Shown here piece after piece: positions 13,022 to 59,892 of a stretch of 64,000 nucleotides of DNA. The DNA comes from a virus. The stretch covers positions 64,001 to 128,000 of the IMG/VR virus record IMGVR_UViG_3300044716_000883; one strand, given 5' to 3'. The stretch's first letter is position 1; each line of letters opens with the position of its first letter. A model generated the notes under the pieces. That model worked only from the letters and a program-made list of their open reading frames with translations. It did no database searches and was not told the DNA's origin. Position numbers and translations under genes: made by a program.

Positions 13022-14023
13022 ATGTCATTTTCAAGATATAACACCGAAGATTCAGTAATCAGTTCAGAAACCGTAGTTAGAGGTTTATGGGGTGGAGATA
13101 ATAATTCTCTATCTACATTTTTTACCCAAAGTGGATACACTGAATATTATCTAGATGTATACAATGGAGATCCTTCAATATCAGGTTCTTCAGTACAGTT
13201 TTCAATTCAATATGGTAACCTAAATGGATCTGGATCTAATTTAATTAATCCTAATATCCCATTAGGTGGATATACTCCATCTCGTGTAGTATATGGTGAA
13301 TATAGAAATTTAGTTTACGGAACTGAAACCACAAACTTTAGCTTTGATAATGGTGCAACAACCGCAAATGATATATTTGTAATTAATGTTGCTCGTTCTC
13401 GTTATAAAGAATCTTTATTACCTAGTTCATTTAATTTAACCTTAGGAAGTGGTAGTAATACAGTTAGATTAACTGATGATAGCGGAACTACAAGTTTAAC
13501 TCGTTTTATTGGTGAAAATAAAGTATATTATGTTATTAGCGGAAGTAATGGTAATGCATATACCCCAGCTGCTTCATCTTCATATTACGGAATGGTATTT
13601 CCTGATTTAGATATTATTGTATTAAATGCTTCTGCATCATCAACAGTATCTTTAACTAATGTATTTGCTCCATTAGCTCAAACTACATCTTCAGCTAATT
13701 ATAATGCCATTAAATTATATAATTCGATTGTTAGTGGATCTTCAACATTCCCTTTTCAATTAAAATCATCTGAAACTGTTTCTTCAAGATATTTCTTTAC
13801 AAGAGTAAAAAATAGTGAGTTTAACTATACTTCAAATCCATCTATTATAGATGCAAATGGCAACTTATTATACACAACTTTAATTAACAATCCTCAAACA
13901 TACGTTACAACAGTAGGTATGTATAATGATAATAATGAGTTGTTAGCAGTAGCTAAATTAAGTAAACCATTAACTAAAGACTTTACTAAAGAAGCTCTAA
14001 TTAGAATCAAACTAGACTATTAA
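13022..14023 (+). CDS. Tail/baseplate structural protein with C-terminal TVGMYNDNNELLAVAKL domain
   Basis: The C-terminal motif resembles tail-collar fibre domains; paralogous to 14027..15541 and 17776..18084. Confidence 0.5.
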   Translation: MSFSRYNTEDSVISSETVVRGLWGGDNNSLSTFFTQSGYTEYYLDVYNGDPSISGSSVQFSIQYGNLNGSGSNLINPNIPLGGYTPSRVVYGEYRNLVYGTETTNFSFDNGATTANDIFVINVARSRYKESLLPSSFNLTLGSGSNTVRLTDDSGTTSLTRFIGENKVYYVISGSNGNAYTPAASSSYYGMVFPDLDIIVLNASASSTVSLTNVFAPLAQTTSSANYNAIKLYNSIVSGSSTFPFQLKSSETVSSRYFFTRVKNSEFNYTSNPSIIDANGNLLYTTLINNPQTYVTTVGMYNDNNELLAVAKLSKPLTKDFTKEALIRIKLDY

Positions 14024-14026: not shown

Positions 14027-15541
14027 ATGTCTTCATTCAAAAAGTTAAGCAAATCAGACGTTACAGTAGTACCTTACCATGCTAATAAGCAATGGATACT
14101 GGATTATTGCCCATACCCTACATCATCTGACTATTTAACTATTTATAAAGGCACAAACCTTACTGGGAGTTTTTCTTTAGATGACGATCCCGTTACTGAA
14201 AATCAATATGAAAGACTAGTCTATAATCAAATCAACCAGTTATTCTATCAAGATTATACTACTTCTTTAGATACTAGTTCGTTAATGCTTTCACTTAACA
14301 ACTACGAATCTGCATCGCAGCAAAGACCAACTTCATCTTATTTTGTATATAACGACAATAAGAATTTAATTACCCTCTTCCCTACAGGTACTATGGAAGG
14401 AATCCGTGTGTTAGCTGTTAATCAAGACATTTATGGTAATAAAGTATTACCAAACCACTTTATCTTATCTTCATCTGCATATTATGTAACTGATGATGGT
14501 TTTGGTAATTTATATGATACAAAATCTACAAAAAAGCATATTGGAAATATGTTTTATGCTCATGGAATAGGAATTATAACTGACCCAGATTATCAATTAA
14601 TGTTTCCTTTACCTCCATTAGCTAAAAATGATATTGCTTATTTTCTAAATACTGATTTTCCTAAAACTATCTCTCCATTAATTAATGACGATCCTAGAGG
14701 AGGAACATTAGTACCTAGTACTTTAACTTTATCTGGTAGTGCAGCTGATTTAGTATTTTGGACTAATAACGGTGATGGAACTGTTACTCTAAATTCATCA
14801 GTTGTCGGGACATATGTAATTTATTATACTGTGGAATCTAGTTATGATTGTGGTAATATTCCAAGTAATAAAGCTAAAATAGCAGTAAATGTAAGTATAA
14901 CATTAACACCAACCACAACAACTAGTACTTCTACATCTACATCAACAAGTACTTCGACGAGTACATCTACTTCAACATCGACATCAACAAGTACATCGAC
15001 ATCAACAAGTACATCTACTTCTACAAGTACTTCAACATCGACAAGTACTTCAACATCGACAAGTACTTCAACGAGTACTTCAACATCAACATCAACAAGT
15101 ACATCGACATCAACAAGTACTAGTACAACAACTAGTACAACAACTGCTCCTCCAATAATATTATCTATAGCTTATGTTGATGCAGCAGGAAATATAAGAT
15201 TAGAAGGAAATTCAGCAACTACTTTAACTGAAAATATTGAATTTCAAGTAATTAGAAGTGTTAGTCATGCTTATACATCACTAAATTGTGGAGCAGGGGA
15301 AATATCACAAAGTAATTTCTTTACAGCACAAACAACAACAATATTTTCTGGTAATACTACAGGACAAAGTGTTGATATATTCTCTACAGGAACTGTTCAA
15401 ACAACTAAAATAGATTCAGTAACAATACTTTGGTCAGATTCATCATCAACTGCCGTACCAAATAATAACACTACTGTCACATCACCAGTAACAGGAAAGA
15501 ATTATAAAATAACTAATATTGATACTTGTACTCCTATTTAA
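14027..15541 (+). CDS. Virion structural protein with Ig-like segment, mucin-like (Thr-Ser)n linker and distal beta domain
   Basis: The N-half aligns by eye with 13022..14023 (LPxxFxL..xTDD motif). Internal 78-residue T/S tract. It lacks the paralog's C-terminal domain. Confidence 0.6.
   Translation: MSSFKKLSKSDVTVVPYHANKQWILDYCPYPTSSDYLTIYKGTNLTGSFSLDDDPVTENQYERLVYNQINQLFYQDYTTSLDTSSLMLSLNNYESASQQRPTSSYFVYNDNKNLITLFPTGTMEGIRVLAVNQDIYGNKVLPNHFILSSSAYYVTDDGFGNLYDTKSTKKHIGNMFYAHGIGIITDPDYQLMFPLPPLAKNDIAYFLNTDFPKTISPLINDDPRGGTLVPSTLTLSGSAADLVFWTNNGDGTVTLNSSVVGTYVIYYTVESSYDCGNIPSNKAKIAVNVSITLTPTTTTSTSTSTSTSTSTSTSTSTSTSTSTSTSTSTSTSTSTSTSTSTSTSTSTSTSTSTSTSTSTSTSTSTSTTTSTTTAPPIILSIAYVDAAGNIRLEGNSATTLTENIEFQVIRSVSHAYTSLNCGAGEISQSNFFTAQTTTIFSGNTTGQSVDIFSTGTVQTTKIDSVTILWSDSSSTAVPNNNTTVTSPVTGKNYKITNIDTCTPI
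14912..15145 (+). repeat. In-frame low-complexity repeat encoding 78 consecutive Thr/Ser residues, mostly (TS)n
   Basis: Seen directly; mixed synonymous codons with recurring 18-bp units such as ACAAGTACTTCAACATCG. Confidence 0.95.
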
Positions 15542-15548
15542 TAAAAAA

Positions 15549-15580
15549 TTTGGAGTCATAAATTAGGATAATTATATTAT
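15549..15580 (+). promoter_or_regulatory. Bacteroidota-type sigma70 promoter candidate for the glycosylation cassette
   Basis: TTTG (15549) -N20- TATATTAT (15573), compared with consensus TTTG-N19-21-TAnnTTTG; imperfect -7 box. Confidence 0.4.
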
Positions 15581-15584
15581 AGTT

Positions 15585-16526
15585 ATGAAAAATTTACGTT
15601 ATATTTGCGTTCAACCTCGTCTGATATATTATGCCTGGCAAGTAGAAGTTATGATTAATAACTTTATTAAAAATGGAATCAGTGGTAATAATATTGATAT
15701 TCTAGTTGCTTGGAACTCCAATGACGATACTAATACCCCAGAAGTAATAGAAGCTTGGAATAAATTAGCTAATACATACAATTATGTTAGATTCTTCTTC
15801 TATGAAGATACTAGAGAAGATATGAATTATATTCCTTCTATTTACTTTAATATATTAAAACAACACATTAAGGCCCACCCAGAACTAATAGACCAACCTC
15901 TATTTTTACACGATTCTGATATCTTATTTACAAAACCAGTTGATTTTAGCAGTATGCTAAATGATAAAATTTGGTATTTAAGTGATACTGTTGGTTATAT
16001 TGGAACTCAATATGTTTTAACAAAAGGTGAAGATGTTTATAAAGGAATGTGTAATATAATAGGAATTGATCCTTTAATACCTAAACTATTAAATTCAAAT
16101 TCTGGGGGTGCTCAACATATTGTTAAAGGTTCTACTTATGAATATTGGGATAAAGTAGAAAAAGATTCAATTAGATTATATAGATGGTTTTGTGAACAAG
16201 AACCTTTATGGAAGGGTGAAGGATATCCAATTCAAAAGTGGACTGCAGGTATGTGGTCACTATTATGGAATGCTTGGTTATTTGGTAATGAAACTAAAGT
16301 AGATAAAAGATTAGATTTTTGTTGGGCAACTGACCCTATTAATGGATGGAATAATGTATCAATATTCCATAATGCTGGTGTGACAGAACATGGTAAGTTA
16401 TTTATGAAGGGTAATTATATTAATTCATATCCATATGGCATAGAAAACACGTTTGATTCTAATTTTTGTTCATATAACTATGTTAATGAAATTATAGAAA
16501 CTTCTAAAAAAACATGTTTAATATGA
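15585..16526 (+). CDS. GT-A fold glycosyltransferase, resembling peptidyl-Ser/Hyp O-glycosyltransferases (GT96/GT95-like)
   Basis: DxD motif FLHDSDILFTKP; later KWTAGMWSLLWNA and IFHNAG motifs. Family resemblance is from recalled motifs. Confidence 0.55.
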   Translation: MKNLRYICVQPRLIYYAWQVEVMINNFIKNGISGNNIDILVAWNSNDDTNTPEVIEAWNKLANTYNYVRFFFYEDTREDMNYIPSIYFNILKQHIKAHPELIDQPLFLHDSDILFTKPVDFSSMLNDKIWYLSDTVGYIGTQYVLTKGEDVYKGMCNIIGIDPLIPKLLNSNSGGAQHIVKGSTYEYWDKVEKDSIRLYRWFCEQEPLWKGEGYPIQKWTAGMWSLLWNAWLFGNETKVDKRLDFCWATDPINGWNNVSIFHNAGVTEHGKLFMKGNYINSYPYGIENTFDSNFCSYNYVNEIIETSKKTCLI

Positions 16527-17263
16527 TTTTACCAAAAATATCTTGTATATGTCCTACCTTTTCCAGGGCATATCTGTTGGAAGAAGCTCTTGAATCTTTC
16601 TTAAAACAAGATTACCAAGGAGAAAAAGAATTAATAATATATAATGATTTCTCCCAACAAGAATTTATATTTGAACACCCAGAAGTAAAAATAATTAACT
16701 CATTAGAAAGATCCCCTAATTTAGGACACAAATGGAATGTAACTTATAGTTATGCTACTGGAGAATATTTACTAACATGGGGGGATGATGATATTTACTT
16801 ACCAGGCAGAATAAGTAGAATGGTTAACAATTTAAATCAGTCTGATTTTTTATATGAAGGTCCATTTTATATACTCTACGGAGATGTTCTTTACAAAAAA
16901 CCAAATCAAACACAAGGAGCAAATATAGTTTCAAGAAAATTATTTGATGCAGTAGGAGGAGTACCAGAAAAAAATACAGGAGAAGATGCCGCTTTTAATA
17001 ATAGAATAGCAGAGTATTTAGGTAAACCCCTTGATGTTTGTAAAGATGAACCACAATTTCTATATAGGTGGTCATCACCAAGAAATCATATATCTCAATT
17101 TGGAGAAGATAAAGAAGGTGAAATCACCAGTTATCAAAGAATGTTAGAAGCAGCAAATATATACATTGAATCCGGTAAAGAGCCTAAAGGTACTTATCAT
17201 TTAAATCCTCATTGGAAATTAAATTGGGTAGAAGAGGTAAAAACTGCTACTTTAGAACCCTAA
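16523..17263 (+). CDS. Glycosyltransferase family 2
   Basis: ISCICPTFSR..LEEALESFLKQDY..IIYND, GEYLLTWGDDDIYLP.RI. Confidence 0.85.
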   Translation: MILPKISCICPTFSRAYLLEEALESFLKQDYQGEKELIIYNDFSQQEFIFEHPEVKIINSLERSPNLGHKWNVTYSYATGEYLLTWGDDDIYLPGRISRMVNNLNQSDFLYEGPFYILYGDVLYKKPNQTQGANIVSRKLFDAVGGVPEKNTGEDAAFNNRIAEYLGKPLDVCKDEPQFLYRWSSPRNHISQFGEDKEGEITSYQRMLEAANIYIESGKEPKGTYHLNPHWKLNWVEEVKTATLEP

Positions 17264-17272
17264 CTAAAAAAT

Positions 17273-17755
17273 ATGAACTACATTCACCCTACAGCTCTGG
17301 TTGAATCTAATGTAATAATTGAAGAAGATGTTTATATTGGACCTTATTGTATAATCGGATTTCCACCTGAATGGAAAAAAAGAGAAGACGAAGGTAAGGG
17401 TGTATTGATTAAAAAAGGAACTAGATTAACTGGATTTGTAACAGTAGATGCAGGTGCAGAAAGAAGAACTGAAATAGGTGAAAATTGCTATATAATGAAA
17501 TATGGTTATGTTGCTCATGATTGTATACTAGGAAATAATGTAACAATGAGTGCTGGCTCAAAATTAGCAGGCTTCTGCTATATTTCTGAAAATGTAAATC
17601 TAGGAATGGGAGTTGCTATCCATCAAAAATCAACAATACCCCCAGGAGTGATGATAGGAATGAATGGAGTAGTAACTAAACAAAGTAAATTATTACCTAA
17701 TCAAAAATATGTGGGTATACCTGTTAAACATATAGGAAGTAATGAAAGACATTAA
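17273..17755 (+). CDS. Hexapeptide-repeat (left-handed beta-helix) acyltransferase, LpxA/sugar O-acyltransferase-like
   Basis: IHPTALVESNVIIEEDVYIGPYCIIG, VAHDCILGNNV; no LpxA C-terminal helical domain. Confidence 0.8.
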   Translation: MNYIHPTALVESNVIIEEDVYIGPYCIIGFPPEWKKREDEGKGVLIKKGTRLTGFVTVDAGAERRTEIGENCYIMKYGYVAHDCILGNNVTMSAGSKLAGFCYISENVNLGMGVAIHQKSTIPPGVMIGMNGVVTKQSKLLPNQKYVGIPVKHIGSNERH

Positions 17756-17775
17756 AATTATAGATATTTATAACC

Positions 17776-18084
17776 ATGCCAGTAACACACACAGGACCAT
17801 TCACCATACTATTTAAAAATGAACATACCATCTACGAAAATGAAATTCGTTGTTTGGTAAAGGAAAGTGATTACAACTTATCATACAACCCAACATTAGT
17901 GTCAGGTAGCTATGAAAGTGGATCCTTAAAGAATTTTGCTACTGCTTCTACTTTCTATACTTACGCTACAACAATAGGTTTGTATGATGATGACAATCAA
18001 CTATTAGCTGTTGCTAAATTGGGTAAACCAATTATGATGTCACCTGATACAGATATGACGTTCGTAGTTAAGTATGATGAATAA
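17776..18084 (+). CDS. Stand-alone C-terminal domain of the 13022/14027 structural family
   Basis: YNLSYNPTL..YATTIGLYDDDNQLLAVAKLGKP matches FNYTSNPSI..YVTTVGMYNDNNELLAVAKLSKP of 13022..14023; has its own ATATTTAT at 17764. Confidence 0.7.
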   Translation: MPVTHTGPFTILFKNEHTIYENEIRCLVKESDYNLSYNPTLVSGSYESGSLKNFATASTFYTYATTIGLYDDDNQLLAVAKLGKPIMMSPDTDMTFVVKYDE

Positions 18085-18098
18085 AATAAATTTTAGTT

Positions 18099-18542
18099 AT
18101 GTTACAAACATCTAATCCTCTTTATGTTGAGGATTTAATAAATGATCCCAATTTTAATATTGATGACTACTGTGGTTATGTCTATATGACTTGTCATGAT
18201 TTAACAGGTCGTAGATACATTGGTAAAAAAGTATTTCATCACACCACTACTAAAAAATTAGGCAAGAAAGAACTAACTGAAATTCCAGTTACCAGAGGTA
18301 AACGCCCATCTAAAAAAACAGTAGTTAAGGAAAGTGATTGGAAAACATATTATGGTTCCAATACTGAAGTAAAGTCATTACCTAAAGACGAAATGACTCG
18401 TATCGTATTGCGTTTATGCAAAACAAAAAAAGAACTAACATACTACGAAACAAAATTCCTATTTGATTATAACGTGTTGGAAAATGACACTTATATGAAC
18501 GATAATATATTAGGTAAATTCTATCGAAAAGACTTGTTATAG
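18099..18542 (+). CDS. GIY-YIG family nuclease (Seg-like, short)
   Basis: GYVY..T...GRRYIGKK, WKTYYGS, ELTYYE, YMNDNILGKFY. Confidence 0.75.
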   Translation: MLQTSNPLYVEDLINDPNFNIDDYCGYVYMTCHDLTGRRYIGKKVFHHTTTKKLGKKELTEIPVTRGKRPSKKTVVKESDWKTYYGSNTEVKSLPKDEMTRIVLRLCKTKKELTYYETKFLFDYNVLENDTYMNDNILGKFYRKDLL

Positions 18543-18564
18543 GCAAAATAGAGTCGTACATTCG
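18534..18564 (+). promoter_or_regulatory. Bacteroidota-type promoter candidate with GGCAAAAT box, upstream of primase
   Basis: TTG (18534) -N20- TACATTCG (18557); GGCAAAAT at 18542. Confidence 0.5.
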
Positions 18565-18569
18565 AGGTT

Positions 18570-19520
18570 ATGGATAATACAGCTTTACTATTTCTAACTG
18601 AATCGGTGCTAGGCAAGGGACAATCTACAAGCAAAGGTAACTATGCTTTTAAGTGTCCATTCTGTACTCACCACAAAAATAAGATGGAAATTAGCATGCG
18701 CACAACGGAAAAGAAAGAAAATTTCTGGCATTGTTGGGTGTGTGGGGCTAAAGGCAAAACATTACTATCCTTATTCAAGAAAATCAAAGCACCAGCTGCT
18801 AAAATAGCAGAATTGAACATATTAGTAGTACCTAATAAAGCACATCAGCAAACTGAAAAAGGTGCTCTTGAACTACCTAAAGAGTTTATTGCGTTTGATG
18901 ATCACGAAAAATTTATAACTGATAGAGTTGCTCAAATCGAATCAAAACACGCTCTTAGATTTTTAAGAAGAAGAGGTATTACTGTAGACGATATTACAAA
19001 ATACAATATAGGCTTTTGTAAGGACGGAAAATACGGCGGTAGAGTAATTATACCATCATTTGATGAATTAGGAAAACTTAATTATTTTATAGCTAGAGAT
19101 TACAAAGACGAAGCTAGTCAAAAATATAAAAATCCTCCTGTTGCCTCTAAAGAGATTATAGGCTGGGAGTTATTCATAAATTGGGATGCACCAATTATAC
19201 TTGTTGAAGGTATTTTTGATGCTCTAACTATCAAACGAAACGTCATTCCTTTGTTTGGTAAGGTATTGCACGATAAACTAATGCAAAAGTTAGTTATGTC
19301 TTCTGTTAATAGAATTTATATTGCTTTAGACCAAGACGCAAGACGAGATGCTTTAAAACAAGCAGAAAAACTTATGTCATATGGTAAAGAAGTATACATG
19401 GTAGAATTAGAAGGTAAAGACGCTAATGAAATTGGTTTTGAAGCATTTTTAAACACAATTGAGCAAACACAACCACTGACATTTCAGAGTTTGCTTGAGA
19501 AAAAATTACAATTAATATGA
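18570..19520 (+). CDS. dnaG: DNA primase (zinc finger + TOPRIM)
   Basis: CPFC..H..WHCWVC zinc finger; GRVIIP; TOPRIM motifs LVEGIFDA and IALDQDA. Confidence 0.9.
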   Translation: MDNTALLFLTESVLGKGQSTSKGNYAFKCPFCTHHKNKMEISMRTTEKKENFWHCWVCGAKGKTLLSLFKKIKAPAAKIAELNILVVPNKAHQQTEKGALELPKEFIAFDDHEKFITDRVAQIESKHALRFLRRRGITVDDITKYNIGFCKDGKYGGRVIIPSFDELGKLNYFIARDYKDEASQKYKNPPVASKEIIGWELFINWDAPIILVEGIFDALTIKRNVIPLFGKVLHDKLMQKLVMSSVNRIYIALDQDARRDALKQAEKLMSYGKEVYMVELEGKDANEIGFEAFLNTIEQTQPLTFQSLLEKKLQLI

Positions 19521-20299: not shown

Positions 20300-20370
20300 T
20301 ATATTTATGCTTGAAAACCAAAAGTTTTTATATTGTTACACAAATATTACAAGATTGTAAATAACGATTT

Positions 20371-20402
20371 GAGCGGGGATATTGTCTCCGCTCTTTTTTT
20401 TT
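20371..20402 (+). terminator. Intrinsic-terminator-like hairpin 18 nt upstream of the TonB receptor start
   Basis: GAGCGGGGA-TATTG-TCTCCGCTC followed by T9. Confidence 0.75.
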
Positions 20403-20420
20403 AACCAAAACAAAACACAA

Positions 20421-23400
20421 ATGAAAAAAGCGATTTTATCGTTACTTCTTTCTGCACTATTTTTAGTGGGATTTGGTCAGGTTACCACATCCTCTATCTC
20501 TGGTGTTGTTAAGAATGAAAAGCAAGAAGTACTAGCAGGTACCGTTGTAGAAGCAATTCACGTTCCTACAGGTACAAAGTACAAGACCGTTGCAAACAAG
20601 AATGGTGTTTATGTGTTACCTGCTGTTAGAGTAGGTGGTCCATATGTAATCCATGCTTCGTTTGTAGGATTTAAAAAGAGTGAAGAAACAGATGTAAACG
20701 CTCAATTGGGTGTTACTACAAACGTTGACTTTGCTTTAGTGGATGAGAAATCAACTCTTAAAGAAGTAGTTGTGACTGGAACAAAATCTGTTTTATTTTC
20801 TAAAGAAAAAACAGGTGCTGCTCAACAATTTGGAAGAAGAGAATTAACTACTATTCCAATTACAGGTGCTAGAACAATTGATGGTATTACCAAGTACAAC
20901 CCATTTGGTAATGGTAACTCATTTGGCGCACAAGACTCTCGTTTGAACAACTTCACAATCGATGGTTCTCAATTTAACAACAACTTCGGTTTAGGTTCTT
21001 CAGCAGCAGCAGGTGGCCGTACAGGCGCTTCAGCAATTTCACTTGACGCGATTGATCAATTACAAGTTAACGTAGCACCATTTGACATTCGTCAATCTGG
21101 ATTTACAGGTGCTGGTATTAACGCTGTAACAAGATCAGGTACAAATGAAATTGAAGGATCCGTTTATCAAACACAACGTGATAATTCATCTCGTTATGTA
21201 GGTGATAACGCTAGAGGAACAAAAGTAACTGCATCTAAATTTGATGAAAAAGTACAAGGTTTTAGATTAGGTTTACCTGTTATTAAAAACAAATTATTTT
21301 TGTTTGGTAACTATGAAGGTATTACAAGAACTGAACCTGGTACAACTTGGATTTCAGCAGGATCACCACTTACAGGTACTCAAGTATCTCGTGTGAAATA
21401 TTCTGACATGGATGCTTTATCTAAATTCATGAAAGAAAAATTTGATTATACAACTGGTCCTTGGGAAGGTTACTCAAATCAGAATTCATCAAATAAATTT
21501 TTGATTCGTGCTGACTGGAATATTAACGACAAAAATAAATTAACTGCTCGTTATGTTCACCATAATTCATCTGCTGAAATTAACGTTTCAAACTCTCAAT
21601 CAGCAGGTGCTGGTAATAGAACAACTCAATTCAATGCTATGAGTTTCCAAAATAGTGGTTACATTATTATGGATAACACTCGTTCAGCAGTATTAGAATT
21701 GAACTCTAAAATCTCTAACACTTTACACAATAGTTTAATCGTTTCTTACGATAAGCAAATTGAAGATAGAGCTTATATGAGTAACATATTCCCAACTATT
21801 GATATCAGAGACGGTTCAGCAACTTACACTTCTGTAGGTTTCGATCCATTTACTCCAGATAACAAATTAGATTATTGGACACTTAATGTTACTAACAACT
21901 TAACTAAGTATTTAGGTAAACATACAGTAGTTGGTGGTTTTAACTTCCAACAATACCAATCTAATAACTTATTCTTCCCAGCATCTAATGGTGTTTATAT
22001 CTTCAATAGTTTGAATGACTTCTACACTGCCGCTAACCAATCATTAGCTAATGGTGGTCGTCCATCAACATTTGCTCCTGCTCGTTTCCAATTTAGATAC
22101 TCAGCATTACCTAGTGGAGCTGCACCAATGCAAACTTTAGAATCTTATAGAACCGATTTATATTTACAAGATGAATATAACGTAAATAAGAATTTAAAGT
22201 TAACTGCTGGTATTAGAGCAAATATTATTTCAATTAACAACACAGCATTAGAAAATAAAGCAGTAACTGCTATGACTTTTGCTAATGGTGAAAAATGGAA
22301 TACAGGTGTAATGCCTGAAACACAGTTATTATTCGAACCTCGTTTCGGATTTAACTGGGATGTAAAAGGTGAAAAGAAAACACAAGTTAGAGGTGGTACT
22401 GGTATTTTTACTGGTCGTCCTCCTTATGTATTCTTATCTAACCAAATTGGTAATACAGGTGTATTATCAGGATTTATTGATGTATCAGGTGCAGCAGCTG
22501 CTAATTATGGCTTTACTGCTAACCCAAATCAATACTTTATTCCTTCAACACCAACTTTACCATCTACATTTGATTTAGCTTTAACAGATGCTAATTATAA
22601 GTTTCCTCAAGTTTGGAAAAATAACTTAGCTGTTGATCAAAAATTACCTTGGTTAGGTTTAATTGCTAGTGTTGAATTATTATACAATAGAACTTTAAAT
22701 GCAGTTCATTATTACAACGCTAACTTAGATGCTCCTGTTGGTAAATTAGGTGGTGTTGATCAAAGACCACTTTATGCAGGTAATGATAACGGTGTTCGTG
22801 TAAACGATAACGTTTCAATGGCTGCAGTATTAACTAATAGAAATGGTGCCTTTAACAAATCAGCAACATTTAAATTAGAAAAACCAGCATCTAAAGGTAT
22901 TTGGGGTTATGTAGCTTATACAGCTGCAGACGCACAAGACTTTATGGACGCAGGTTCAATTGCTAGTGGTTCTTGGCAATCAGCATTATCAGTTAATGGT
23001 AATAATGATTTAGGTTTAACAACTTCATCATTTGTAGTTAGAAATCGTATCGTAGGTTTATTAGGATACCGTTTAGACTATGGTAAGAAATATGGTGGTG
23101 CTACTACATTCACATTAGGATATGTAGGTTCACAAAACAATCCATTCTCTTATATCGTAGCAGGTGACTTAAATGGTGACAGAGTAAATAATAATGATTT
23201 AGTATTTGTACCAAATAAAGCATCAGACATTCGTTTTGCATCTTTAACAGTAGGTACAACAGTTTATACTGAAGCTCAACAACAAGAAGCTTTTGATAAA
23301 TTCATTGATCAAGATCCTTACTTATCAACTCGCAGAGGTCAATATGCTGAAAGAAATGCAATTGCATTACCTTTCCTACATAGATTTGACTTATCAGTTG

Positions 23401-23693
23401 CTCAAGATTTCTTTGTAAAGATTAAAGGTAAGCGCAATGCTTTCCAAATTAGAGCTGATATCTTGAACTTTGGTAATATGTTAAATAATAATTGGGGTGT
23501 ATCTCAACGTGCAGGTGCTCCACAATTGTTGAACTTTGTAAGCCGCGACGCTGCAGGTGTTCCAACATACAGATTATCAACACAGAGAGATGCTACAAGT
23601 ACTTTCTTAGCAAGAGACACATATCAATTCAACTCATCAGTATTTGATGTATGGACTGCTCAATTAGGTATTCGTTACACTTTCGGTAAGTAA
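20421..23693 (+). CDS. TonB-dependent outer-membrane receptor, Oar-like, with N-terminal carboxypeptidase-regulatory-like domain
   Basis: Signal peptide MKKAILSLLLSALFLVGFG/Q; LKEVVVTG; plug motifs NNFTIDG..NN.FG, ISLDAIDQLQV.. PFDIRQSGFTGAGINAVTRSGTN; beta-barrel ending QLGIRYTFGK. Confidence 0.9.
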   Translation: MKKAILSLLLSALFLVGFGQVTTSSISGVVKNEKQEVLAGTVVEAIHVPTGTKYKTVANKNGVYVLPAVRVGGPYVIHASFVGFKKSEETDVNAQLGVTTNVDFALVDEKSTLKEVVVTGTKSVLFSKEKTGAAQQFGRRELTTIPITGARTIDGITKYNPFGNGNSFGAQDSRLNNFTIDGSQFNNNFGLGSSAAAGGRTGASAISLDAIDQLQVNVAPFDIRQSGFTGAGINAVTRSGTNEIEGSVYQTQRDNSSRYVGDNARGTKVTASKFDEKVQGFRLGLPVIKNKLFLFGNYEGITRTEPGTTWISAGSPLTGTQVSRVKYSDMDALSKFMKEKFDYTTGPWEGYSNQNSSNKFLIRADWNINDKNKLTARYVHHNSSAEINVSNSQSAGAGNRTTQFNAMSFQNSGYIIMDNTRSAVLELNSKISNTLHNSLIVSYDKQIEDRAYMSNIFPTIDIRDGSATYTSVGFDPFTPDNKLDYWTLNVTNNLTKYLGKHTVVGGFNFQQYQSNNLFFPASNGVYIFNSLNDFYTAANQSLANGGRPSTFAPARFQFRYSALPSGAAPMQTLESYRTDLYLQDEYNVNKNLKLTAGIRANIISINNTALENKAVTAMTFANGEKWNTGVMPETQLLFEPRFGFNWDVKGEKKTQVRGGTGIFTGRPPYVFLSNQIGNTGVLSGFIDVSGAAAANYGFTANPNQYFIPSTPTLPSTFDLALTDANYKFPQVWKNNLAVDQKLPWLGLIASVELLYNRTLNAVHYYNANLDAPVGKLGGVDQRPLYAGNDNGVRVNDNVSMAAVLTNRNGAFNKSATFKLEKPASKGIWGYVAYTAADAQDFMDAGSIASGSWQSALSVNGNNDLGLTTSSFVVRNRIVGLLGYRLDYGKKYGGATTFTLGYVGSQNNPFSYIVAGDLNGDRVNNNDLVFVPNKASDIRFASLTVGTTVYTEAQQQEAFDKFIDQDPYLSTRRGQYAERNAIALPFLHRFDLSVAQDFFVKIKGKRNAFQIRADILNFGNMLNNNWGVSQRAGAPQLLNFVSRDAAGVPTYRLSTQRDATSTFLARDTYQFNSSVFDVWTAQLGIRYTFGK

Positions 23694-23713
23694 CATTATA
23701 TTCCTGAATATTT

Positions 23714-23747
23714 ATAGGTGGCTTGGCTCGTCCAGGTCACCTATTTA
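23714..23747 (+). terminator. Hairpin after the TonB receptor gene, overlapped by ATATTTAT/TATTTAT motifs
   Basis: ATAGGTGGCTTGG-CTCGT-CCAGGTCACCTAT followed by TTT. Confidence 0.5.
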
Positions 23748-25450: not shown

Positions 25451-25452
25451 TT

Positions 25453-52782: not shown

Positions 52783-55700
52783 ATGGCAGTAAACATTAAA
52801 TTAAAACGCAGTGCCGTTCCTGGCAACGTTCCTGACACCTCTCAGTTAGAGTTAGGTGAAATAGCTCTTAATACCCACGACGGTAAAGCTTTCTTTAAAC
52901 AAGACGTTAATGGACTACAATCCATTGTAGAATTAGCTTCTTTTACTAGTGGCTCATCAGTCGCTTCAGCATCTTACGCTGCTTACGCTGATTATGCTGC
53001 TAATGCGGGGACCGCCAATACTGCTTCTTATGTTAATAACGCCATATCTTCTTCATTTGCCACAACAGCATCGTATGCTCCTGGATCAGATACAGCCACA
53101 AGTGCTTCTTATGCTGCAACAGCATCATCTGCTAACAATTTTTTAGTAAGAGGTACATTAACTGCTCAAACTATTGTTGCTCAATACATTACCTCTTCAA
53201 CAAGTTTTATTACAGGTTCTACTAAGTTTGGATCAATAATTTCAAATACTCATGAATTTACGGGTAGCATTAGTGTTAGTGGATCATTAGGAATAAATGG
53301 GATTGATTACGGAACAACATCAGCCTCTTTTGATACTCGTATTAATAATAATAGTTCAAGTATAGCAATACTTAGTGCTTCTCTTTTAGGAGAAACCGCA
53401 GCTATTTTTACTATTCTTTCTGGTCAAAGTAGTAGCATAAGTTCTTTAAGTTCTTCATTTTTAGCTTTTAGCAGTTCATATAATACAGGATCATTTAGTG
53501 GTTCCTTTAGTGGTTCCTTGTTTGGAAGTGCTAGTTGGGCTCTAGATGCTGTTGATACTATAAATGCTCCTAGATATACTTTAACATCTTCATTTCAAAA
53601 CTTTACACAATCTTATTATAGTGACAGTGCTTCTGTTAGTACAAGAGTAACAAATTTAGAACAATTTAGCTCTAGCTTAGATGCAACATTCGCAACGGAT
53701 GCTCAATTAAACGATGCTACTGCTTCATTAAGTGGATCTATATCATATCTAAGCGCTAGTTTCTTAATTGATAGTGCCTCATTCAATACTCGTATTAATA
53801 ATAACAGTTCAAGCATTGATTTATTAAGTGGAAGCTATTTGGCTTCAAGTTCATCGTTTGACACTCGCATTATCAATAATAGTTCAAGCATTGGTTTGTT
53901 GAGCGGTAGTTACTTAGCATCCTCCTCTTCATTTGACACTCGCATTATCAACAATAGCTCAAGTATTGCTTTATTAAGTGGTAGTTATTTAGCTGATTCT
54001 TCGTCATTTGATACCCGTATCTTAAACAATAGTTCAAGCATCGGTTTACTAAGCGGAAGTTACTTAGCTTCAAGTGCATCGTTTGACACTCGTATTATTA
54101 ATAACAGTTCTAGCATCGGTTTATTGAGTGGTAGCTATTTGGCTTCAAGTGCATCATTTGACACTCGTATTATTAATAATAGTTCAAGCATTGCTTTATT
54201 AAGTGGCTCTTACTTATCAGATAGTGCCTCTTTCAACACTCGTATTAACAATAATAGCTCTAGTATTGGGTTGTTAAGCGGTAGCTATTTAGCTTCAAGT
54301 GCTTCATTCGATACAAGAATACTTAACAACAGCAGCTCCATTGGATCTCTATCAGGCAGTTTCTTAAGTGTTAGTTCTTCTAACTCAACTAGAATATCTA
54401 ATCTAGAACAATTTAGCTCATCATTAGATACAATATTTGCTACTGATGCTGATTTAAATGCCTTAAGTTCTAGTTTCAATACATTCTCTAGCTCAATTAA
54501 TAGTTGGACTGGTTCTTCAACTTCACAATTTGGAGGTACAGCATCTTATTCTAACACTTCTATAAGTGCTTCTTATGCTGCAACAGCATCCTCAGCAGAT
54601 AACTTTTTAGTAAGAGGAACTCTTACAGCACAAACAATTATAGCCCAATATATTACTTCATCAGTTGAATTTGTAACTGGATCTACACATTTTGGAACAA
54701 CAATTGATAACACACATCAATTTACAGGTAGTGTTAGTATTAGTGGTTCATTAGGAATAAATGGTATTGACTATGCTTCAACATCAGCTTCATTTGATAC
54801 AAGAATATTAAACAATAGTAGTTCTATTGGTTTACTAAGCGGAAGCTACTTGGCTTCTTCTTCATCATTCGATACTCGTATTATCAATAATAGTAGCAGT
54901 ATCGGTCTTTTAAGTGGTAGTTATTTGGCTAGTTCTGCGTCATTTGACACTAGAATTTTAAATAACAGCTCTAGCATTGGTTTGCTAAGCGGCAGTTACT
55001 TAGCTTCAAGCGCATCCTTTGACACTCGTATCTTGAACAATAGTTCAAGTATTGGTTTGCTAAGCGGCAGTTACTTAGCTGATAGTGCTTCATTCGATAC
55101 AAGAATACTTAATAATAGTTCAAGTATAGGGTCTCTATCAGGTAGTTTCTTAAGCGTTAGTTCTTCTAACTCAATAAGAATAACAGACTTAGAAGCATTT
55201 AGTTCATCATTAGATGCAACGTATGCAACTGATGCTCAATTAAATGCAGCTACTGCTTCATTAAGTAGCTCAATAGCAATATTATCTTCTTCATATACTT
55301 CTTTTAGCAGTTCATTCTCTACAGGTTCCTTTACTGGTTCTTTCAATGGAGATTTTACAGGATCATTAAATAATCTACAAGGTACAGCTAGACATATTCC
55401 ATTCTTTAGTTCATCTCAAGTATTGGATGATAGTTCAATATATCAAGTTGGTAATGAAAGTGTTGCTATTAATCAAAATGCTGTTACGTCAGCAGCTCCT
55501 GAAGCATTATATGTTTGGCAACCAAATACATCTTCATTCAATGTAATTAGTGGTAAAGGTAATCTAGATAACTACCTACAATTAAACATCCAGAATACCA
55601 ATCAAGGATCTACAGCATCATCTGACATTGTAGCTACAGCAAATAACGGTAACGAATTTAGTAACTACATTAATATGGGTATCAACAGTGAAAACTTTAG

Positions 55701-58700
55701 TGGTTTTCTTGGTGGGCCTAATGATGCTTATTTATTTTCTACTGGTAGTGAGTTTCATATTGGTAATATCACCCCAGGTAAACACTTAGGTTTCTTTGTA
55801 GGTGGTGGAGATGTAGATACAGGTAATAAATTTGCTTTATATCCTACAAACCAACACCAAATGACTGGTTCATTAGATGTAAGTGGTAGTGTAAAAGCAT
55901 TTTCATTTACTGGTTCTTTATTTGGAACTGCTAGTTGGGCTAATAATGCTATAACAGCATCTTATGCTTTAAATGCTATAAGTGCTTCATTTGCATCAAG
56001 TGGTTTAGGAGTATTTAGTGGATCATTTAGTGGATCATTCTTCGGTAATGGAGGTGGTTTAACAAATATACCTGCTTCAAGCGTTGTAGGATTAAATTTA
56101 TCTCAAATTTCTTCTGGTAGTGTAACTGCTTCTGTAGACCCAGCTTATGGATTTAAAGTAAACAGCAACACAACTATTTCAGGTTCAACCCAAATAACTG
56201 GATCTTTAGGTGTAACAGGATCTGTTAGTATAGCAGGAACAGGTACAGTATTATCCGCTAATGTAGATACAATCGTATTTACAGGTTCATTTGCTCAATC
56301 AGGATCAGTAACAGTAAACGGTAATATTACTTCTACTGGTACTATTACAGCTCAAACATTAAATGTTCAAACTATAACATCATCTGTTAGTTTTATAACA
56401 GGATCATCTAAGTTTGGATCAATAATTTCAAATACACATCAATTTACGGGTAGTATTTTAGTGAGTGGATCTTTAGCTGTTAATGATTCTAACGTTATTT
56501 TAACTAACCAGACATCATCAATGTCTGTGCTAAGTGCTTCATTTGCATCAACCGCATCATATGTTACTTTAGCTCAAACTGCATCATATATTACTTTAGC
56601 TCAAACATCATCTTATGTAACATTAGCTCAAACAGCTTCATACGTAGCAAATGCTCAAACTGCATCTTATGTATTAAATGCTGTAAGTGCTTCATATGCA
56701 TCAAATGCAGATTTACTAGATGGTAAAGACAGTACTATATTTGCAACTACAGGTTCAAATACATTTATAGGCACTCAAATAGTAACTGGAAGTTTATTTA
56801 CTAGTGGATCAAATTCATTAGTAGGAAACACTATATTAGATGGTACTATTGGAATTAACGGAAACTCAACTTTAACAGGTTCATTCCTAGTATCAGGTTC
56901 TACTACTCAAATAGGAAATAATACCCTAATAGGTAATACCTCATTAACAGGCTCATTTAAAATATCAGGTAGCGAGACTGTTACAGGATATATTCAATTT
57001 GAACCTGTAACAACAAACATTGATACATCAATATCTGCTTCATATATTTTTGTAAGTGGATCTACAAAGGACTTATATTTTAGCCAAAATAGTGCTGGAT
57101 ATAGTAATGTAACTCGTTTACGTTGGTTAGAAGGTAATTTATATACTGGTCTATTAAATGGTGGTTTAATTACTACTCAATCTTCTACTGTTTATCAAAT
57201 TGGTAGTGGTAGTGGTATTATTGTAGATTTAAACGCATCATTAAATGATAATCCATACCCAACAATCCAATACTTAAGTTGGGGAAATCTATCAGCTAGT
57301 ATTGCTCCTTTAACAGCATCATATCAACAAGCATTTGTTGGTATTGATTCATCAAACAACATTTACGCTCAAGGAATACCTTTTAGTAATGGTCAGTTTG
57401 ATACTATAATAAACATTGGTAACGTATTATTCCAAAACCAATCTACAATTAATGGTGTTAAAACTCAACCTTCTGTAGCTTATGGTTTTGAACAACAACA
57501 AAATGTATTTAATAGAGCATTCGGACCATTAAAATTATCAGGATATACTTTAGCACCTAGTGGATCTAGTACACGCGGTTTATTAGTAGGAAGTGGTACA
57601 GCTTATTCTCCAGGATCTAACTACGTTATAGATCCAAATGAACCTTATTACACAACTGATTCTGGTACTAGTGTATCAAAAATATTTAGATATTACCAAT
57701 CAGGATCTAGTTGGGTTTATTTAACAAACGCAGGTGCTGGATATACAGCAATTGATCCAACTCAATATTCTAATAATGGTACTTTATCAGGTGTAGCTAA
57801 TGGTGAATGGTCAATCCAACGTGTATTTTGGTTCCCTAACTCCGTTACAAAAGCTATAGTAGTTTATTATGGTAATACAGTATTTGCAACTGAAGCAGAA
57901 GCTATTGCTAATATCAACATAGAATCATTTGTTGAAGCACCTAATACCGCAGCTAACGCTATATATTTAGGTAGTATTGTAATTAAAGGAAATGGTGTGT
58001 TTACTGCACCTACCGAATTTACAATAGTACCTGGAGGCTTATTTAGACAAGTAGGAGGAACTGGTGGTGGTGGTTCGGTAATCACACAAACTCTATCAGG
58101 TTTATCTGATGTATTAATATCAGGCCCTACAAGTGGTCAAGCTTTAGTGTATGATTCTACAGCGGCTAAATGGGAAAATAAATCATTTATTAGTGCTTCT
58201 ATCTCAGGAAATGCTGCAACCGCAACAACTGCATCATACGCAGCAAACGTTCCTGAAACAGCATCTTATGCACTATCTGCCAACTCAGCTTCATACGCTA
58301 TAACGGCTTCATATGTTAGTCCTTACACCGAGATACTTTCAGCATCGTTTGCAACAACAGCGTCATATGTTAGTCCTTATACGACGATAATTTCATCTTC
58401 GTTTGCAACAACAGCATCATTTGCTTCAACTGTTAATTACGATAACCTTATAAGATCAGCTTCATTTGCTGAAACCGCTTCATACGTTAGTCCGTATACA
58501 ACAATAATTTCATCGTCATTCGCAACTACCGCCTCATACGTTAGTCCGTATACAGAAATATTTTCAGCATCGTTTGCAACAACAGCATCATATGCTTCAA
58601 CTGTTAACTATGACAATCTTATAAGATCGGCTTCGTTTGCTGAAACAGCGTCATATGTTAGTCCTTATACAATAATACTATCATCTTCGTTTGCTGAAAC

Positions 58701-59892
58701 AGCGTCATATGTTAGTCCTTACACAGAAATAATATCGTCATCATTTGCTACTACAGCATCATATGCTTCAAATATCAATTATGATAATCTTATAAGATCG
58801 GCTTCATTTGCTGAAACAGCTTCATTTGCCTCAACATCTTCATATTCAAATAATATAGTAGGCGCTGCAAATTACATTCCTAAATTTACTGGAGGTAATA
58901 CTTTAAGTAGCAGTATAATGTATGAAAATGCTAGTGGTATTGGTATTAATAATATTTCTCCATCCCATAAATTACAAGTAAGTGGAGATGCTGCTGTAGC
59001 CAACACCAACAGTACTTTAAATACAACTAAATATGCTTTATTATCTGGACTTCAATTAACATCCACGGGTACAGAATCAAACCAATATGCTAATGTTGGT
59101 GTGTATGGAGCATTAGGATTTTCAGCAACATCATCAACTTTTACTCCATCAGATAAATCGTTTACAAGTGCAGTCTTAGGTCAATTTGGTAAAAGTGGAA
59201 ATGGAAATATTTCTGGTAAAGTATCTTCATTTGCTTCTGCATTTGATCTTGCAGGTGGTGGTAACGTAACAACAATGGCTGGATTTAGAGCTTATGCTCC
59301 TCTTCAATCATTTGCTTTACCATCATTTACAGGTACTATAACAAACTACATTGGTTTATTAGTAGATGATATTACAGGAACTACGGATGTAGATTCTCAA
59401 ATCACTAACAAATATGGTATTTTCCAATCAGGATCTCTTGATAAAAACTACTTTGCAGGTTCAACAACATTCGCAGGTGGTGTTACCGGATCTTTACTTG
59501 GAACTGCAACCACTGCTTCATACGCAGCAACTGCATCATTTTCACAAAACCTAACAGTAGGAAGTTCATTAACTATTGATCAAACATTAACTGATTATGC
59601 TACAGTAGCATCATCAACTGTTGGATCAAATAACCTATTTACTCAAACTGTTGGTTCTTATACATCAGCATTCTTTAAATACACCGTATCAAATGGTGGT
59701 AACACAAGAGCTGGTGAAGTAATAGCAGCTTGGAATGGTACTACAGCAGAATTTACAGATTTCTCAACAGTAGATATAGGTAATACTACAGCAGTAACTG
59801 CTTCAATATCAATAGTATCAGGACAAGTACAATTCAACGTTCAAACTAACAGTTCAGGATGGAGAATTAAATCATTAGCAACATTCATGTAA
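52783..59892 (+). CDS. Giant Ser/Thr-rich tail fibre (2369 aa) with internal repeats
   Basis: N-terminal IKLKRS.VPG.VP...L.LGEIALNT.DGK.F fibre-attachment motif; tandem repeat arrays; position after tail genes. Confidence 0.8.
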   Translation: MAVNIKLKRSAVPGNVPDTSQLELGEIALNTHDGKAFFKQDVNGLQSIVELASFTSGSSVASASYAAYADYAANAGTANTASYVNNAISSSFATTASYAPGSDTATSASYAATASSANNFLVRGTLTAQTIVAQYITSSTSFITGSTKFGSIISNTHEFTGSISVSGSLGINGIDYGTTSASFDTRINNNSSSIAILSASLLGETAAIFTILSGQSSSISSLSSSFLAFSSSYNTGSFSGSFSGSLFGSASWALDAVDTINAPRYTLTSSFQNFTQSYYSDSASVSTRVTNLEQFSSSLDATFATDAQLNDATASLSGSISYLSASFLIDSASFNTRINNNSSSIDLLSGSYLASSSSFDTRIINNSSSIGLLSGSYLASSSSFDTRIINNSSSIALLSGSYLADSSSFDTRILNNSSSIGLLSGSYLASSASFDTRIINNSSSIGLLSGSYLASSASFDTRIINNSSSIALLSGSYLSDSASFNTRINNNSSSIGLLSGSYLASSASFDTRILNNSSSIGSLSGSFLSVSSSNSTRISNLEQFSSSLDTIFATDADLNALSSSFNTFSSSINSWTGSSTSQFGGTASYSNTSISASYAATASSADNFLVRGTLTAQTIIAQYITSSVEFVTGSTHFGTTIDNTHQFTGSVSISGSLGINGIDYASTSASFDTRILNNSSSIGLLSGSYLASSSSFDTRIINNSSSIGLLSGSYLASSASFDTRILNNSSSIGLLSGSYLASSASFDTRILNNSSSIGLLSGSYLADSASFDTRILNNSSSIGSLSGSFLSVSSSNSIRITDLEAFSSSLDATYATDAQLNAATASLSSSIAILSSSYTSFSSSFSTGSFTGSFNGDFTGSLNNLQGTARHIPFFSSSQVLDDSSIYQVGNESVAINQNAVTSAAPEALYVWQPNTSSFNVISGKGNLDNYLQLNIQNTNQGSTASSDIVATANNGNEFSNYINMGINSENFSGFLGGPNDAYLFSTGSEFHIGNITPGKHLGFFVGGGDVDTGNKFALYPTNQHQMTGSLDVSGSVKAFSFTGSLFGTASWANNAITASYALNAISASFASSGLGVFSGSFSGSFFGNGGGLTNIPASSVVGLNLSQISSGSVTASVDPAYGFKVNSNTTISGSTQITGSLGVTGSVSIAGTGTVLSANVDTIVFTGSFAQSGSVTVNGNITSTGTITAQTLNVQTITSSVSFITGSSKFGSIISNTHQFTGSILVSGSLAVNDSNVILTNQTSSMSVLSASFASTASYVTLAQTASYITLAQTSSYVTLAQTASYVANAQTASYVLNAVSASYASNADLLDGKDSTIFATTGSNTFIGTQIVTGSLFTSGSNSLVGNTILDGTIGINGNSTLTGSFLVSGSTTQIGNNTLIGNTSLTGSFKISGSETVTGYIQFEPVTTNIDTSISASYIFVSGSTKDLYFSQNSAGYSNVTRLRWLEGNLYTGLLNGGLITTQSSTVYQIGSGSGIIVDLNASLNDNPYPTIQYLSWGNLSASIAPLTASYQQAFVGIDSSNNIYAQGIPFSNGQFDTIINIGNVLFQNQSTINGVKTQPSVAYGFEQQQNVFNRAFGPLKLSGYTLAPSGSSTRGLLVGSGTAYSPGSNYVIDPNEPYYTTDSGTSVSKIFRYYQSGSSWVYLTNAGAGYTAIDPTQYSNNGTLSGVANGEWSIQRVFWFPNSVTKAIVVYYGNTVFATEAEAIANINIESFVEAPNTAANAIYLGSIVIKGNGVFTAPTEFTIVPGGLFRQVGGTGGGGSVITQTLSGLSDVLISGPTSGQALVYDSTAAKWENKSFISASISGNAATATTASYAANVPETASYALSANSASYAITASYVSPYTEILSASFATTASYVSPYTTIISSSFATTASFASTVNYDNLIRSASFAETASYVSPYTTIISSSFATTASYVSPYTEIFSASFATTASYASTVNYDNLIRSASFAETASYVSPYTIILSSSFAETASYVSPYTEIISSSFATTASYASNINYDNLIRSASFAETASFASTSSYSNNIVGAANYIPKFTGGNTLSSSIMYENASGIGINNISPSHKLQVSGDAAVANTNSTLNTTKYALLSGLQLTSTGTESNQYANVGVYGALGFSATSSTFTPSDKSFTSAVLGQFGKSGNGNISGKVSSFASAFDLAGGGNVTTMAGFRAYAPLQSFALPSFTGTITNYIGLLVDDITGTTDVDSQITNKYGIFQSGSLDKNYFAGSTTFAGGVTGSLLGTATTASYAATASFSQNLTVGSSLTIDQTLTDYATVASSTVGSNNLFTQTVGSYTSAFFKYTVSNGGNTRAGEVIAAWNGTTAEFTDFSTVDIGNTTAVTASISIVSGQVQFNVQTNSSGWRIKSLATFM
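53773..54372 (+). repeat. 8 x 75-bp (25-aa) repeat SASFDTRIxNNSSSIGLLSGSYLAS
   Basis: Counted from the translation and DNA. Confidence 0.95.
54784..55158 (+). repeat. 5 x 75-bp (25-aa) repeat, second array
   Basis: Same unit as the first array. Confidence 0.95.
58306..58818 (+). repeat. Higher-order repeat (A-A-B) x3; A = 18 aa ASYVSPYTxIxSxSFAxT, B = 21 aa ASxASxxNYDNLIRSASFAET
   Basis: Read from the translation. Confidence 0.9.

Follow-up and report, generated by a model that had tools for sequence, protein, structure and literature searches.

The locus considered here raises the question of why a phage encodes an unbroken run of threonine and serine residues directly ahead of three genes for sugar-modifying enzymes. 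It lies in a stretch of viral DNA of 64,000 nucleotides (nt), hereafter the window, which corresponds to bases 64,001-128,000 of an IMG/VR record of 179,381 bp that has direct terminal repeats and is rated complete. An earlier note, made from the letters of the window, had proposed a writer-substrate module, in which a mucin-like stalk on a structural protein is O-glycosylated, extended and acylated by the enzymes encoded next to it. In the present analysis, the locus is best read, from the comparison of sequences, as a phage-encoded protein O-glycosylation module inserted in a split virion gene, and glycosylation of the virion is considered probable. The comparative co-occurrence of tract and enzyme, and the position of the tract gene immediately ahead of the enzyme gene, speak for the module; the glycan, its location on the virion and the donor sugar are inferred. 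The elements of the locus are as follows, with lengths in amino acids (aa) and ORF denoting an open reading frame.

13022..14023, + strand: unsplit paralog of 333 aa, alignable to the N part and the C part of the split gene.
14027..15541, + strand: ORF of 504 aa, comprising the N fragment, an Ig-like (immunoglobulin-like) segment, the Thr/Ser tract and a distal domain.
14027..14617, + strand: N fragment, ~197 aa, a conserved anchor domain that matches residues 1 to ~222 of the unsplit 327-aa gene of a relative (locus L005).
14618..14911, + strand: putative Ig-like segment (Pfam Big_9, E 0.045, below threshold).
14912..15145, + strand: Thr/Ser tract, residues 296-373, 78 consecutive Thr/Ser codons, the proposed acceptor of O-glycosylation.
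15146..15541, + strand: distal domain, 131 aa, with a counterpart (59% identical) in locus L002 only.
15585..16526, + strand: GT1, a soluble glycosyltransferase with a DxD motif (phrog_4417, GT-A model), the proposed initiating peptide O-glycosyltransferase.
16514..17263, + strand: GT2 glycosyltransferase (PF00535, E 1.4e-12, 48.3 bits against a cut-off of 23.3), proposed to extend the glycan.
17273..17755, + strand: hexapeptide (left-handed beta-helix) acyltransferase (PF00132, E 2.2e-19, 68.7 bits against a cut-off of 27), proposed to acylate sugar.
17776..18084, + strand: C fragment, a separate ORF of 102 aa, which matches residues ~223-327 of the unsplit L005 gene.
18099..18542, + strand: SegE-type GIY-YIG homing endonuclease (PF19835, E 6.6e-25).

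A split structural gene encloses the cassette, a feature that the earlier note overlooked. In L005, a more distant relative, a single gene of 327 aa spans the N fragment and the 102-aa ORF end to end, and the insertion in the window, at 14618-17775 (3.2 kb), carries the Ig-like segment, the tract, the distal domain and the three enzyme genes. The C fragment also aligns with the C-terminus of the 333-aa paralog, and the C-terminal motif GxYNDxNxLLAVAKL is common to the paralog and the split gene. A survey of relatives retrieved 84 loci by means of the conserved 220-aa neighbour gene, beside which the paralog stands in essentially all of them. The gene is unsplit, as one gene of ~330 aa, in 42 of the 69 informative loci and split in 27. 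The smallest insert is a single small domain (L011), and the largest comprise several ORFs of fibre size (1,000-1,800 aa); the ~100-aa C-fragment ORF closes the insert in 14 split loci, and in some relatives the N fragment is joined to proteins of 800-1400 aa, again of fibre size. In locus L012 (11665-14106), fusion has joined the N fragment to a protein of 813 aa that contains DUF285 repeats (E 1e-114), and the Thr/Ser tract is found on a separate ORF of 331 aa immediately before GT1. In most relatives, the hypervariable locus is flanked by a homolog of the SegE-type GIY-YIG endonuclease, of which the 84 loci contain 53 ORFs, and the homing endonuclease may drive turnover or exchange of cassettes at the split locus.

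The carrier protein had been placed in a baseplate/collar family, for which the surrounding genes provide support and the searches with the protein itself do not. Upstream of the cassette locus are genes that match baseplate wedge families of the T4 gp25-like and gp6-like kinds. Among isolates, the nearest is Flavobacterium phage vB_FspM_immuto, whose homologs of the 220-aa and 333-aa proteins are 67% and 47% identical, respectively, and in which the unsplit homolog genes are followed by annotated tail-fibre and tail-spike genes. On account of this similarity and of the gp25/gp6-like genes, the label of a T4-like Bacteroidota phage is reasonable. In immuto, a protein search gave no match to GT1, and no codon run of the form T3-x-T4 occurs anywhere in the genome. 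The split protein, joined as N plus C, matched no Pfam or PHROG family, and a sequence search of the PDB gave no match for the paralog. For the 504-aa protein, Pfam, PHROG and NCBIfam returned only the match to the NCBIfam family 'ser_rich', which at 21 bits against a cut-off of 650 is compositional only. A model of the unsplit N+C protein (predicted local distance difference test, pLDDT, 71.8) places the split point in a loop between helix 214-219 and the long strand 228-247. This model gave no significant solved match by Foldseek against the PDB (all E > 0.1); the best match by VIA was a phi812 baseplate chain with a weak Z of 5.2, and BFVD returned uncharacterised phage proteins (E 4e-18) together with weak 'baseplate wedge' matches (E 0.04-0.08).

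The tract can be read directly in the translation, as had been described, and consists of 43 Thr and 35 Ser with zero other residues. It is the longest unbroken Thr/Ser run among 80 GT1-bearing loci sampled, in which the runner-up has 51 residues and the median is 18 (runs of at least 12). Eight codons are used, ACA 28, ACT 12, ACG 2 and ACC 1 for Thr, and AGT 13, TCA 11, TCG 6 and TCT 5 for Ser. The mixed codon use that had been pointed out is thereby borne out, while the conclusion drawn from it, that slippage was not responsible, excluded expansion at the DNA level too strongly: Tandem Repeats Finder detected a degenerate period of 18 nt (8.1 copies, 80% matches) and a period of 36 nt, for which reason growth of the tract by unit duplication, followed by drift, is probable. 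Of the flanking parts, the putative Ig-like segment, so named from the sub-threshold Pfam match together with its conservation in 16 relatives, is 92% identical in L002. The distal domain has no Pfam match, and the distal domains of relatives other than L002 are unrelated to that of the window.

The evidence that carries the proposed reading is the association of GT1 with such tracts. In IMG/VR, 68 distinct GT1 loci were scored, a gene being counted as tract-bearing if Ser/Thr made up at least 80% of a window of 25 residues. At position -1, directly upstream of GT1, 46 of 65 genes (71%) bear a tract, compared with 12 of 62 at position -2, 6 of 57 at position -3 and 0 of 356 at positions +1 to +6 downstream; the difference in frequency between -1 and -2 is significant at p = 6e-9, and six further genes at -1 contain shorter poly-Thr runs. 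Among the 27 split loci, GT1 and a pure tract are found together in six, GT1 only in one (L042), a tract only in one (L063, where the locus ends right after the tract), and neither in 19 (Fisher p = 1.6e-4). The pairing on which the writer-substrate proposal depends therefore held across relatives.

These counts bear most on the alternative that fares best, according to which the tract is an unmodified flexible or extended linker, and the enzymes, brought to this place by a recombination hot spot, act on host envelope glycans (lipopolysaccharide, capsule, or receptor masking and superinfection exclusion). It is true that many split relatives carry S/T/P-rich linkers and no GT1 (L004, L013, L034, L036 and others), but these GT1-less loci mostly have Pro-rich linkers (PTPS or TPSVTPS) or no such tract, and proline makes up ~24-68% of the richest 25-residue S/T/P window of the linkers, whereas the GT1-linked tracts are at least 85% Ser/Thr. 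The L042-type loci, which have GT1 and no tract, would be expected of a linker that is independent of the enzyme; the complete lack of tracts downstream of GT1 would not, nor would the strict -1 adjacency that recurs in unrelated Firmicutes siphophages, where the neighbour is a major tail or capsid protein. The hypervariability of the locus, with a homing endonuclease alongside, fits a hot spot, and further sugar genes and an outer-membrane receptor gene in the genome fit a host target. Such a target is opposed by the enzymes themselves, as hydrophobic segments, membrane segments and signal peptides are absent from GT1, GT2 and the acyltransferase; the 504-aa protein likewise has no hydrophobic segment. 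Taken together, this alternative is unlikely.

The module is confined neither to this phage nor to Bacteroidota phages: the pairing of enzyme and poly-Thr is widespread and includes Firmicutes phages sequenced long ago. A GT1 homolog covering at least 80% of the query is present in 77 isolated phage records, and homologs occur in small temperate siphophages, within the head-tail gene block. In all eight isolated phages examined, poly-Thr runs are located on capsid, tail-tube or neighbouring proteins. In Enterococcus phage phiFL1A, the major tail protein gp50, directly upstream of the GT1 homolog, has a C-terminal Thr/Ser run of 22 residues, and gp45 (annotated as conserved hypothetical, beside the scaffold gene, and probably a capsid protein) has C-terminal TTTTTKP repeats. 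In Lactobacillus phage Semele, a 115-aa 'major tail protein' directly upstream contains four TTTTTSTTTVKP units. The capsid/protease and the 'major structural protein' orf13 of Lactococcus phage 1706 (L172, 468-2528 and 3238-3975) both have C-termini of the form T9-10-HHD, and orf50 of Lactococcus phage bIL285 ends in T9-RHD; this shared ending looks like a recognition tag. A poly-Thr run is also found at the C-terminus of gp18 in Clostridium phage phiCTP1, and on a 428-aa protein at -1 in Chryseobacterium phage MA9V-3. The major tail proteins of Staphylococcus phage vB-SscS-F1 (L170, 3203-3925) and Arcanobacterium phage TPWB06 (L171, 3164-3926) both end in T9-P-stop. A separately annotated poly-Thr ORF is situated just downstream in the former, while in the latter another frame crosses the stop into a long poly-Thr ORF, and the GT1 homolog follows directly in both, which suggests a longer, frameshifted form of the tail-tube protein that bears the tag.

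The annotation of the tagged proteins in GT1-bearing isolates (capsid, major tail or major structural protein) also counts against a second alternative, in which the tract is glycosylated and the 504-aa protein is not part of the virion, being instead an assembly factor, a decoy or a released protein. Such a role would suit a split gene whose N fragment alone may not fold or dock, and for which Foldseek and VIA found no solved structural homolog. However, the C fragment is an intact ORF in the 14 closed split loci and is 79-94% identical in L177 and L002, and from its being kept intact and conserved it is argued that the two-piece protein is still functional; moreover, relatives join the N fragment to proteins of fibre size. 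This second alternative is thus regarded as quite improbable.

Regarding the enzymes, the three following genes had been described as a DxD glycosyltransferase, a GT2 and a hexapeptide acyltransferase, all of which were confirmed by the matches listed above. GT1 aligns over its full length with phrog_4417, annotated 'unknown function' (E 2.5e-67, its residues 5-306 matching positions 2-291 of the 293 in the profile). No Pfam family was found for GT1 at E <= 0.01, no consistent one for 34 relatives even at E <= 5, GT8 (PF01501) included, and a sequence search of the PDB gave no match. In the family alignment of 34 sequences, D110-x-D112 is invariant, and SGGAQ and HNxGV are further invariant motifs of the family. 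The AlphaFold2 model of GT1 built from 34 sequences (pLDDT 94.8; predicted template-modelling score, pTM, 0.92) displays a GT-A fold by both Foldseek and VIA-align, with 108 solved chains at Z >= 8, the top ones glycosyltransferases. The matches include LgtC (Z 14.8, 241 residues aligned, root-mean-square deviation 3.7), the Skp1 alpha-galactosyltransferase 6mw8 (Z 14.5), glycogenin (Z 14.4), the catalytic domain of UGGT from family GT24 (Z 14.4), an Anaerococcus GT8 protein (Z 13.5), GlyE of the pneumococcal serine-rich-repeat pathway (5gvv, Z 13.3, 220 residues aligned) and A64R of PBCV-1 (2p6w, Z 11.8); identities are ~10%, and the Foldseek E values of the listed matches are 2.5e-7 and weaker. 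As modelled, the fold of GT1 is closest to GT8-type enzymes. Membership of PF01501 by sequence was rejected for lack of a profile match, the likeness to GT8 being by fold only. Several of the GT8-type fold neighbours glycosylate proteins in the cytoplasm, namely glycogenin, the Skp1 galactosyltransferase, GlyE and PBCV-1 A64R.

A profile search of 1.84 billion proteins gave 999 clusters at 50% identity for the GT1 family (E <= 0.001), and no bridge to a named family was found among the best 150 of the 999, all of which are close members. In a neighbour cluster from a language model (Atlas), PF23452 (HPAT) appears on 10% of the members, which is a weak lead; PF23452 itself had no match in the GT1 of the window, the 34 relatives or nine distant homologs, and no solved GT95 or GT96 chain was present among the structural matches. 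GT1 occurs in fusions with GT2, GT6, GT25 and GT32-type domains, with methyltransferases and with a radical-SAM/SPASM domain. In P0121 (658 aa), a GT1 domain is joined to a radical-SAM/SPASM domain, and at L150 6001-8346 to two methyltransferase domains.

GT1 is the constant member of the cassette, and the enzymes that follow it vary across loci: a GT2, a GT2-methyltransferase fusion, GT6, a Fringe-like enzyme, GT2_2/GT7C, methyltransferases, an acyltransferase, or none. As far as sequences tell, this combination of a constant GT1 and variable partners fits an initiator followed by lineage-specific extension or decoration. The GT2 of the window travels, at 92% identity, with GT1 and the acyltransferase in five other contigs. 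The acyltransferase has sub-threshold LpxA and NeuD/PglB/VioB matches. Its identification as LpxA was rejected (96 bits against a cut-off of 226, for a protein of only 160 aa that matches positions 66-177 of the 264 in the profile). Homologs at a greater distance from the acyltransferase are located, without GT1, in unannotated clusters that by gene order resemble sugar-biosynthesis clusters. Its substrate may be a nucleotide sugar.

Two relatives show how the parts are exchanged. In L177, the enzymes are close to those of the window (GT1 89%, GT2 92% and acyltransferase 92.5% identity), while the N fragment (67%), the Ig-like segment (42%) and the C fragment (79%) are more divergent, the tract is a different poly-Thr and the distal domain is unrelated. 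In L002, by comparison, the N fragment and the C fragment are each 94% identical, the tract is again a different poly-Thr, GT1 is only 56% identical, a GT6 stands in place of GT2, and an ORF of 208 aa and unknown function stands in place of the acyltransferase. These comparisons indicate that the cassette and the neighbour protein recombine independently, and that the pairing of GT1 with poly-Thr persists. The anatomy of the locus, the split, the fold, the family-wide adjacency and this independent recombination are what the analysis shows.

In the weakest alternative, phage DNA is what the glycosyltransferases modify, and the tract has nothing to do with them. This is very improbable despite the precedent of T4-like phages, whose glycosyltransferases classically glucosylate hydroxymethylcytosine. 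The complete 179-kb genome yielded no gene of the thymidylate-synthase/dCMP-hydroxymethylase family (PF00303), GT1 has glycan-extending transferases as fusion partners or neighbours, and its homologs are embedded in the head-tail block of small temperate siphophages.

For the favoured reading, in which the module glycosylates a virion protein, the enzyme activities, the acceptor, the donor, the location on the virion and the benefit are inferred, and the process may be pictured as follows. The N fragment of a conserved gene of the baseplate/fibre region now bears the Ig-like segment, the Thr/Ser stalk and the distal domain, and the C fragment, made separately, would presumably re-associate with it. 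GT1, which is soluble and predicted by its DxD motif to be metal-dependent, would act in the cytoplasm of the infected cell, before or during assembly, and use a nucleotide sugar to attach the first sugar to the hydroxyls of Thr and Ser in the tract; this role is assigned to it because of gene order and fold. Because of the families to which they belong, GT2 would subsequently extend the glycan by a further sugar, and the hexapeptide acyltransferase would acylate a sugar of the glycan or the nucleotide donor. Dense glycosylation might then produce a stiff, extended, hydrophilic and protease-resistant 'bottle-brush' stalk, which would either keep the 131-aa distal domain at a distance from the baseplate or shield it.

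Several observations weigh against this picture. About 20% of GT1 loci have no poly-Thr at -1, and in the L042-type loci (at least five contigs), which lack a tract, GT1 lies between a bare N fragment of 176 aa and the C fragment. Related Bacteroidota phages supply most of the 80 metagenomic loci. By sequence, the 46 tract proteins at -1 form ~10 clusters, and 32 of the proteins belong to a single cluster; the positional counts therefore do not represent independent events. The carrier protein has no structural-family assignment by sequence or fold. Furthermore, a separate cluster of sugar-biosynthesis genes, 13 kb in length, is present in the genome outside the window (genome positions 15,620-28,875; locus L199, G000:C1), and therefore the phage's glycosyltransferases need not all serve the virion. 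It contains two GT4 and two GT2 genes, a DegT/DnrJ aminotransferase (E 1.5e-97), two NAD-dependent epimerase/dehydratases and a hexapeptide transferase, and could be the source of an unusual amino-sugar donor for the virion glycan. The three enzymes of the cassette do not constitute the whole of the sugar toolkit of this phage.

A wider proposal, held with moderate confidence, is that phrog_4417 marks a cross-phylum system. A portable poly-Thr/Ser 'glyco-tag' on capsid, tail-tube, fibre or baseplate proteins would be O-glycosylated by a cytoplasmic GT-A initiator, and interchangeable enzymes of extension and decoration would give each phage a particle glycan of its own; here, the cassette of tag and writer would have entered a split baseplate gene beside a homing endonuclease, and virion glycosylation would be common in phages of Bacteroidota and Firmicutes.

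Among known systems, the closest described one is virion glycosylation in mycobacteriophages, for which phage-encoded glycosyltransferases are proposed to glycosylate the phage's own structural proteins (PMC12619734, citing Freeman et al. 2023, Cell Host Microbe). As there, a phage-encoded glycosyltransferase is found here within or beside structural genes, and in the Firmicutes GT1 phages the Thr tags are C-terminal on capsid and tail-tube proteins, which is also where the mycobacteriophage glycans are reported to be. In contrast, the acceptor proposed here is a long internal tract in a protein of the baseplate/fibre region, encoded by a split gene, and GT1 belongs to a family without annotated function.

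By analogy, the closest in mechanism is the serine-rich-repeat glycoprotein pathway of Gram-positive cocci (GspB/Fap1/PsrP). There, long Ser/Thr repeats are glycosylated in the cytoplasm, the initiating enzyme is encoded beside its substrate, and the initiator is followed by variable extending transferases, as in the cassette; the GT1 model also resembles GlyE of this pathway. The initiator GtfA, however, is a GT-B enzyme (GT4) with a GtfB partner, whereas GT1 is GT-A. No Glycos_transf_1 gene of that type was found in the cassette, the two GT4 genes of the genome being ~60 kb away. Accessory Sec export is not involved here, and the substrate is a phage protein. The GT8-type enzymes LgtC, glycogenin and Skp1 alpha-galactosyltransferase, as well as UGGT, share the GT-A fold and the DxD motif with GT1, but the differences in sequence given above leave a likeness by fold only. 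Plant and algal GT95/GT96 enzymes (HPAT, SGT1) likewise initiate glycans, in their case on Ser/Hyp of repetitive cell-wall proteins, but in view of the missing PF23452 match this link is a lead only. A64R of the chlorovirus PBCV-1 is, like the proposed GT1, a virus-encoded cytoplasmic GT-A enzyme that glycosylates the virus's own capsid protein; PBCV-1 is, however, a eukaryotic virus, and the structural likeness to GT1 concerns the general GT-A fold. The capsid glycans of PBCV-1 are atypical N-linked glycans, without a Thr/Ser tract.

A literature search gave no description of the phrog_4417 family or of its pairing with poly-Thr in phages; subscription journals were poorly covered, and an earlier description is possible. 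Within the theme of phage virion glycosylation, what is distinctive here is the split-gene architecture of the cassette together with the extreme tract: a display-plus-enzyme cassette interrupts a structural gene of which both parts are kept, and a homing endonuclease is adjacent. If the proposal is correct, sugar-coating of phage particles is not limited to mycobacteriophages, and a large enzyme family (~1,000 clusters at 50% identity), annotated only as 'hypothetical', would be given its work. Glycans on capsids and tails could then affect adsorption, stability, immune recognition and the pharmacology of phage therapy, and a short Thr tag with a soluble enzyme would provide a simple tool for glycosylating proteins in the cytoplasm. 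The family is present in well-studied dairy, enterococcal and staphylococcal phages, and the question of glycosylation can be tested directly in existing isolated phages.

Further features of the genome are of lesser bearing. The only other poly-Thr run has 16 residues (TTTSTTTTTTTTS) and lies outside the window in a 236-aa ORF (G000:C1:5535-6245, locus L200). Two genes before it, a protein of 572 aa with a GT25 domain is encoded (G000:C1:3272-4990), and the two may form a second writer-substrate pair. Two long genes in the window are as follows.

20382..23693, + strand: full-length outer-membrane receptor-like gene of 1,103 aa (Pfam OMP_b-brl_4, E 2.7e-46; CarboxypepD_reg, E 2.7e-15), between the replication genes and the following block.
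52783..59892, + strand: ORF of 2,369 aa with tandem repeats of several families (units of 54, 75 and 171 nt), probably a long fibre.

In the relative L003, the receptor-like gene begins at the equivalent place. Regarding regulatory signals, a search for T4 late promoters found TATAAATA not enriched overall in the window (21 found against 17.9 expected). A further short element stands directly before the C fragment.

17765..17772, + strand: TATTTATA box, 4 nt before the start codon of the C fragment, with a putative function.

The overall frequency of this octamer in the window is not above chance. It is nevertheless located within ~65 nt upstream of many ORF starts on the + strand, its other positions being 340, 6426, 23709, 26505, 28681, 36554, 40060, 47906 and 52718, and TATTTATA may be a phage promoter element.

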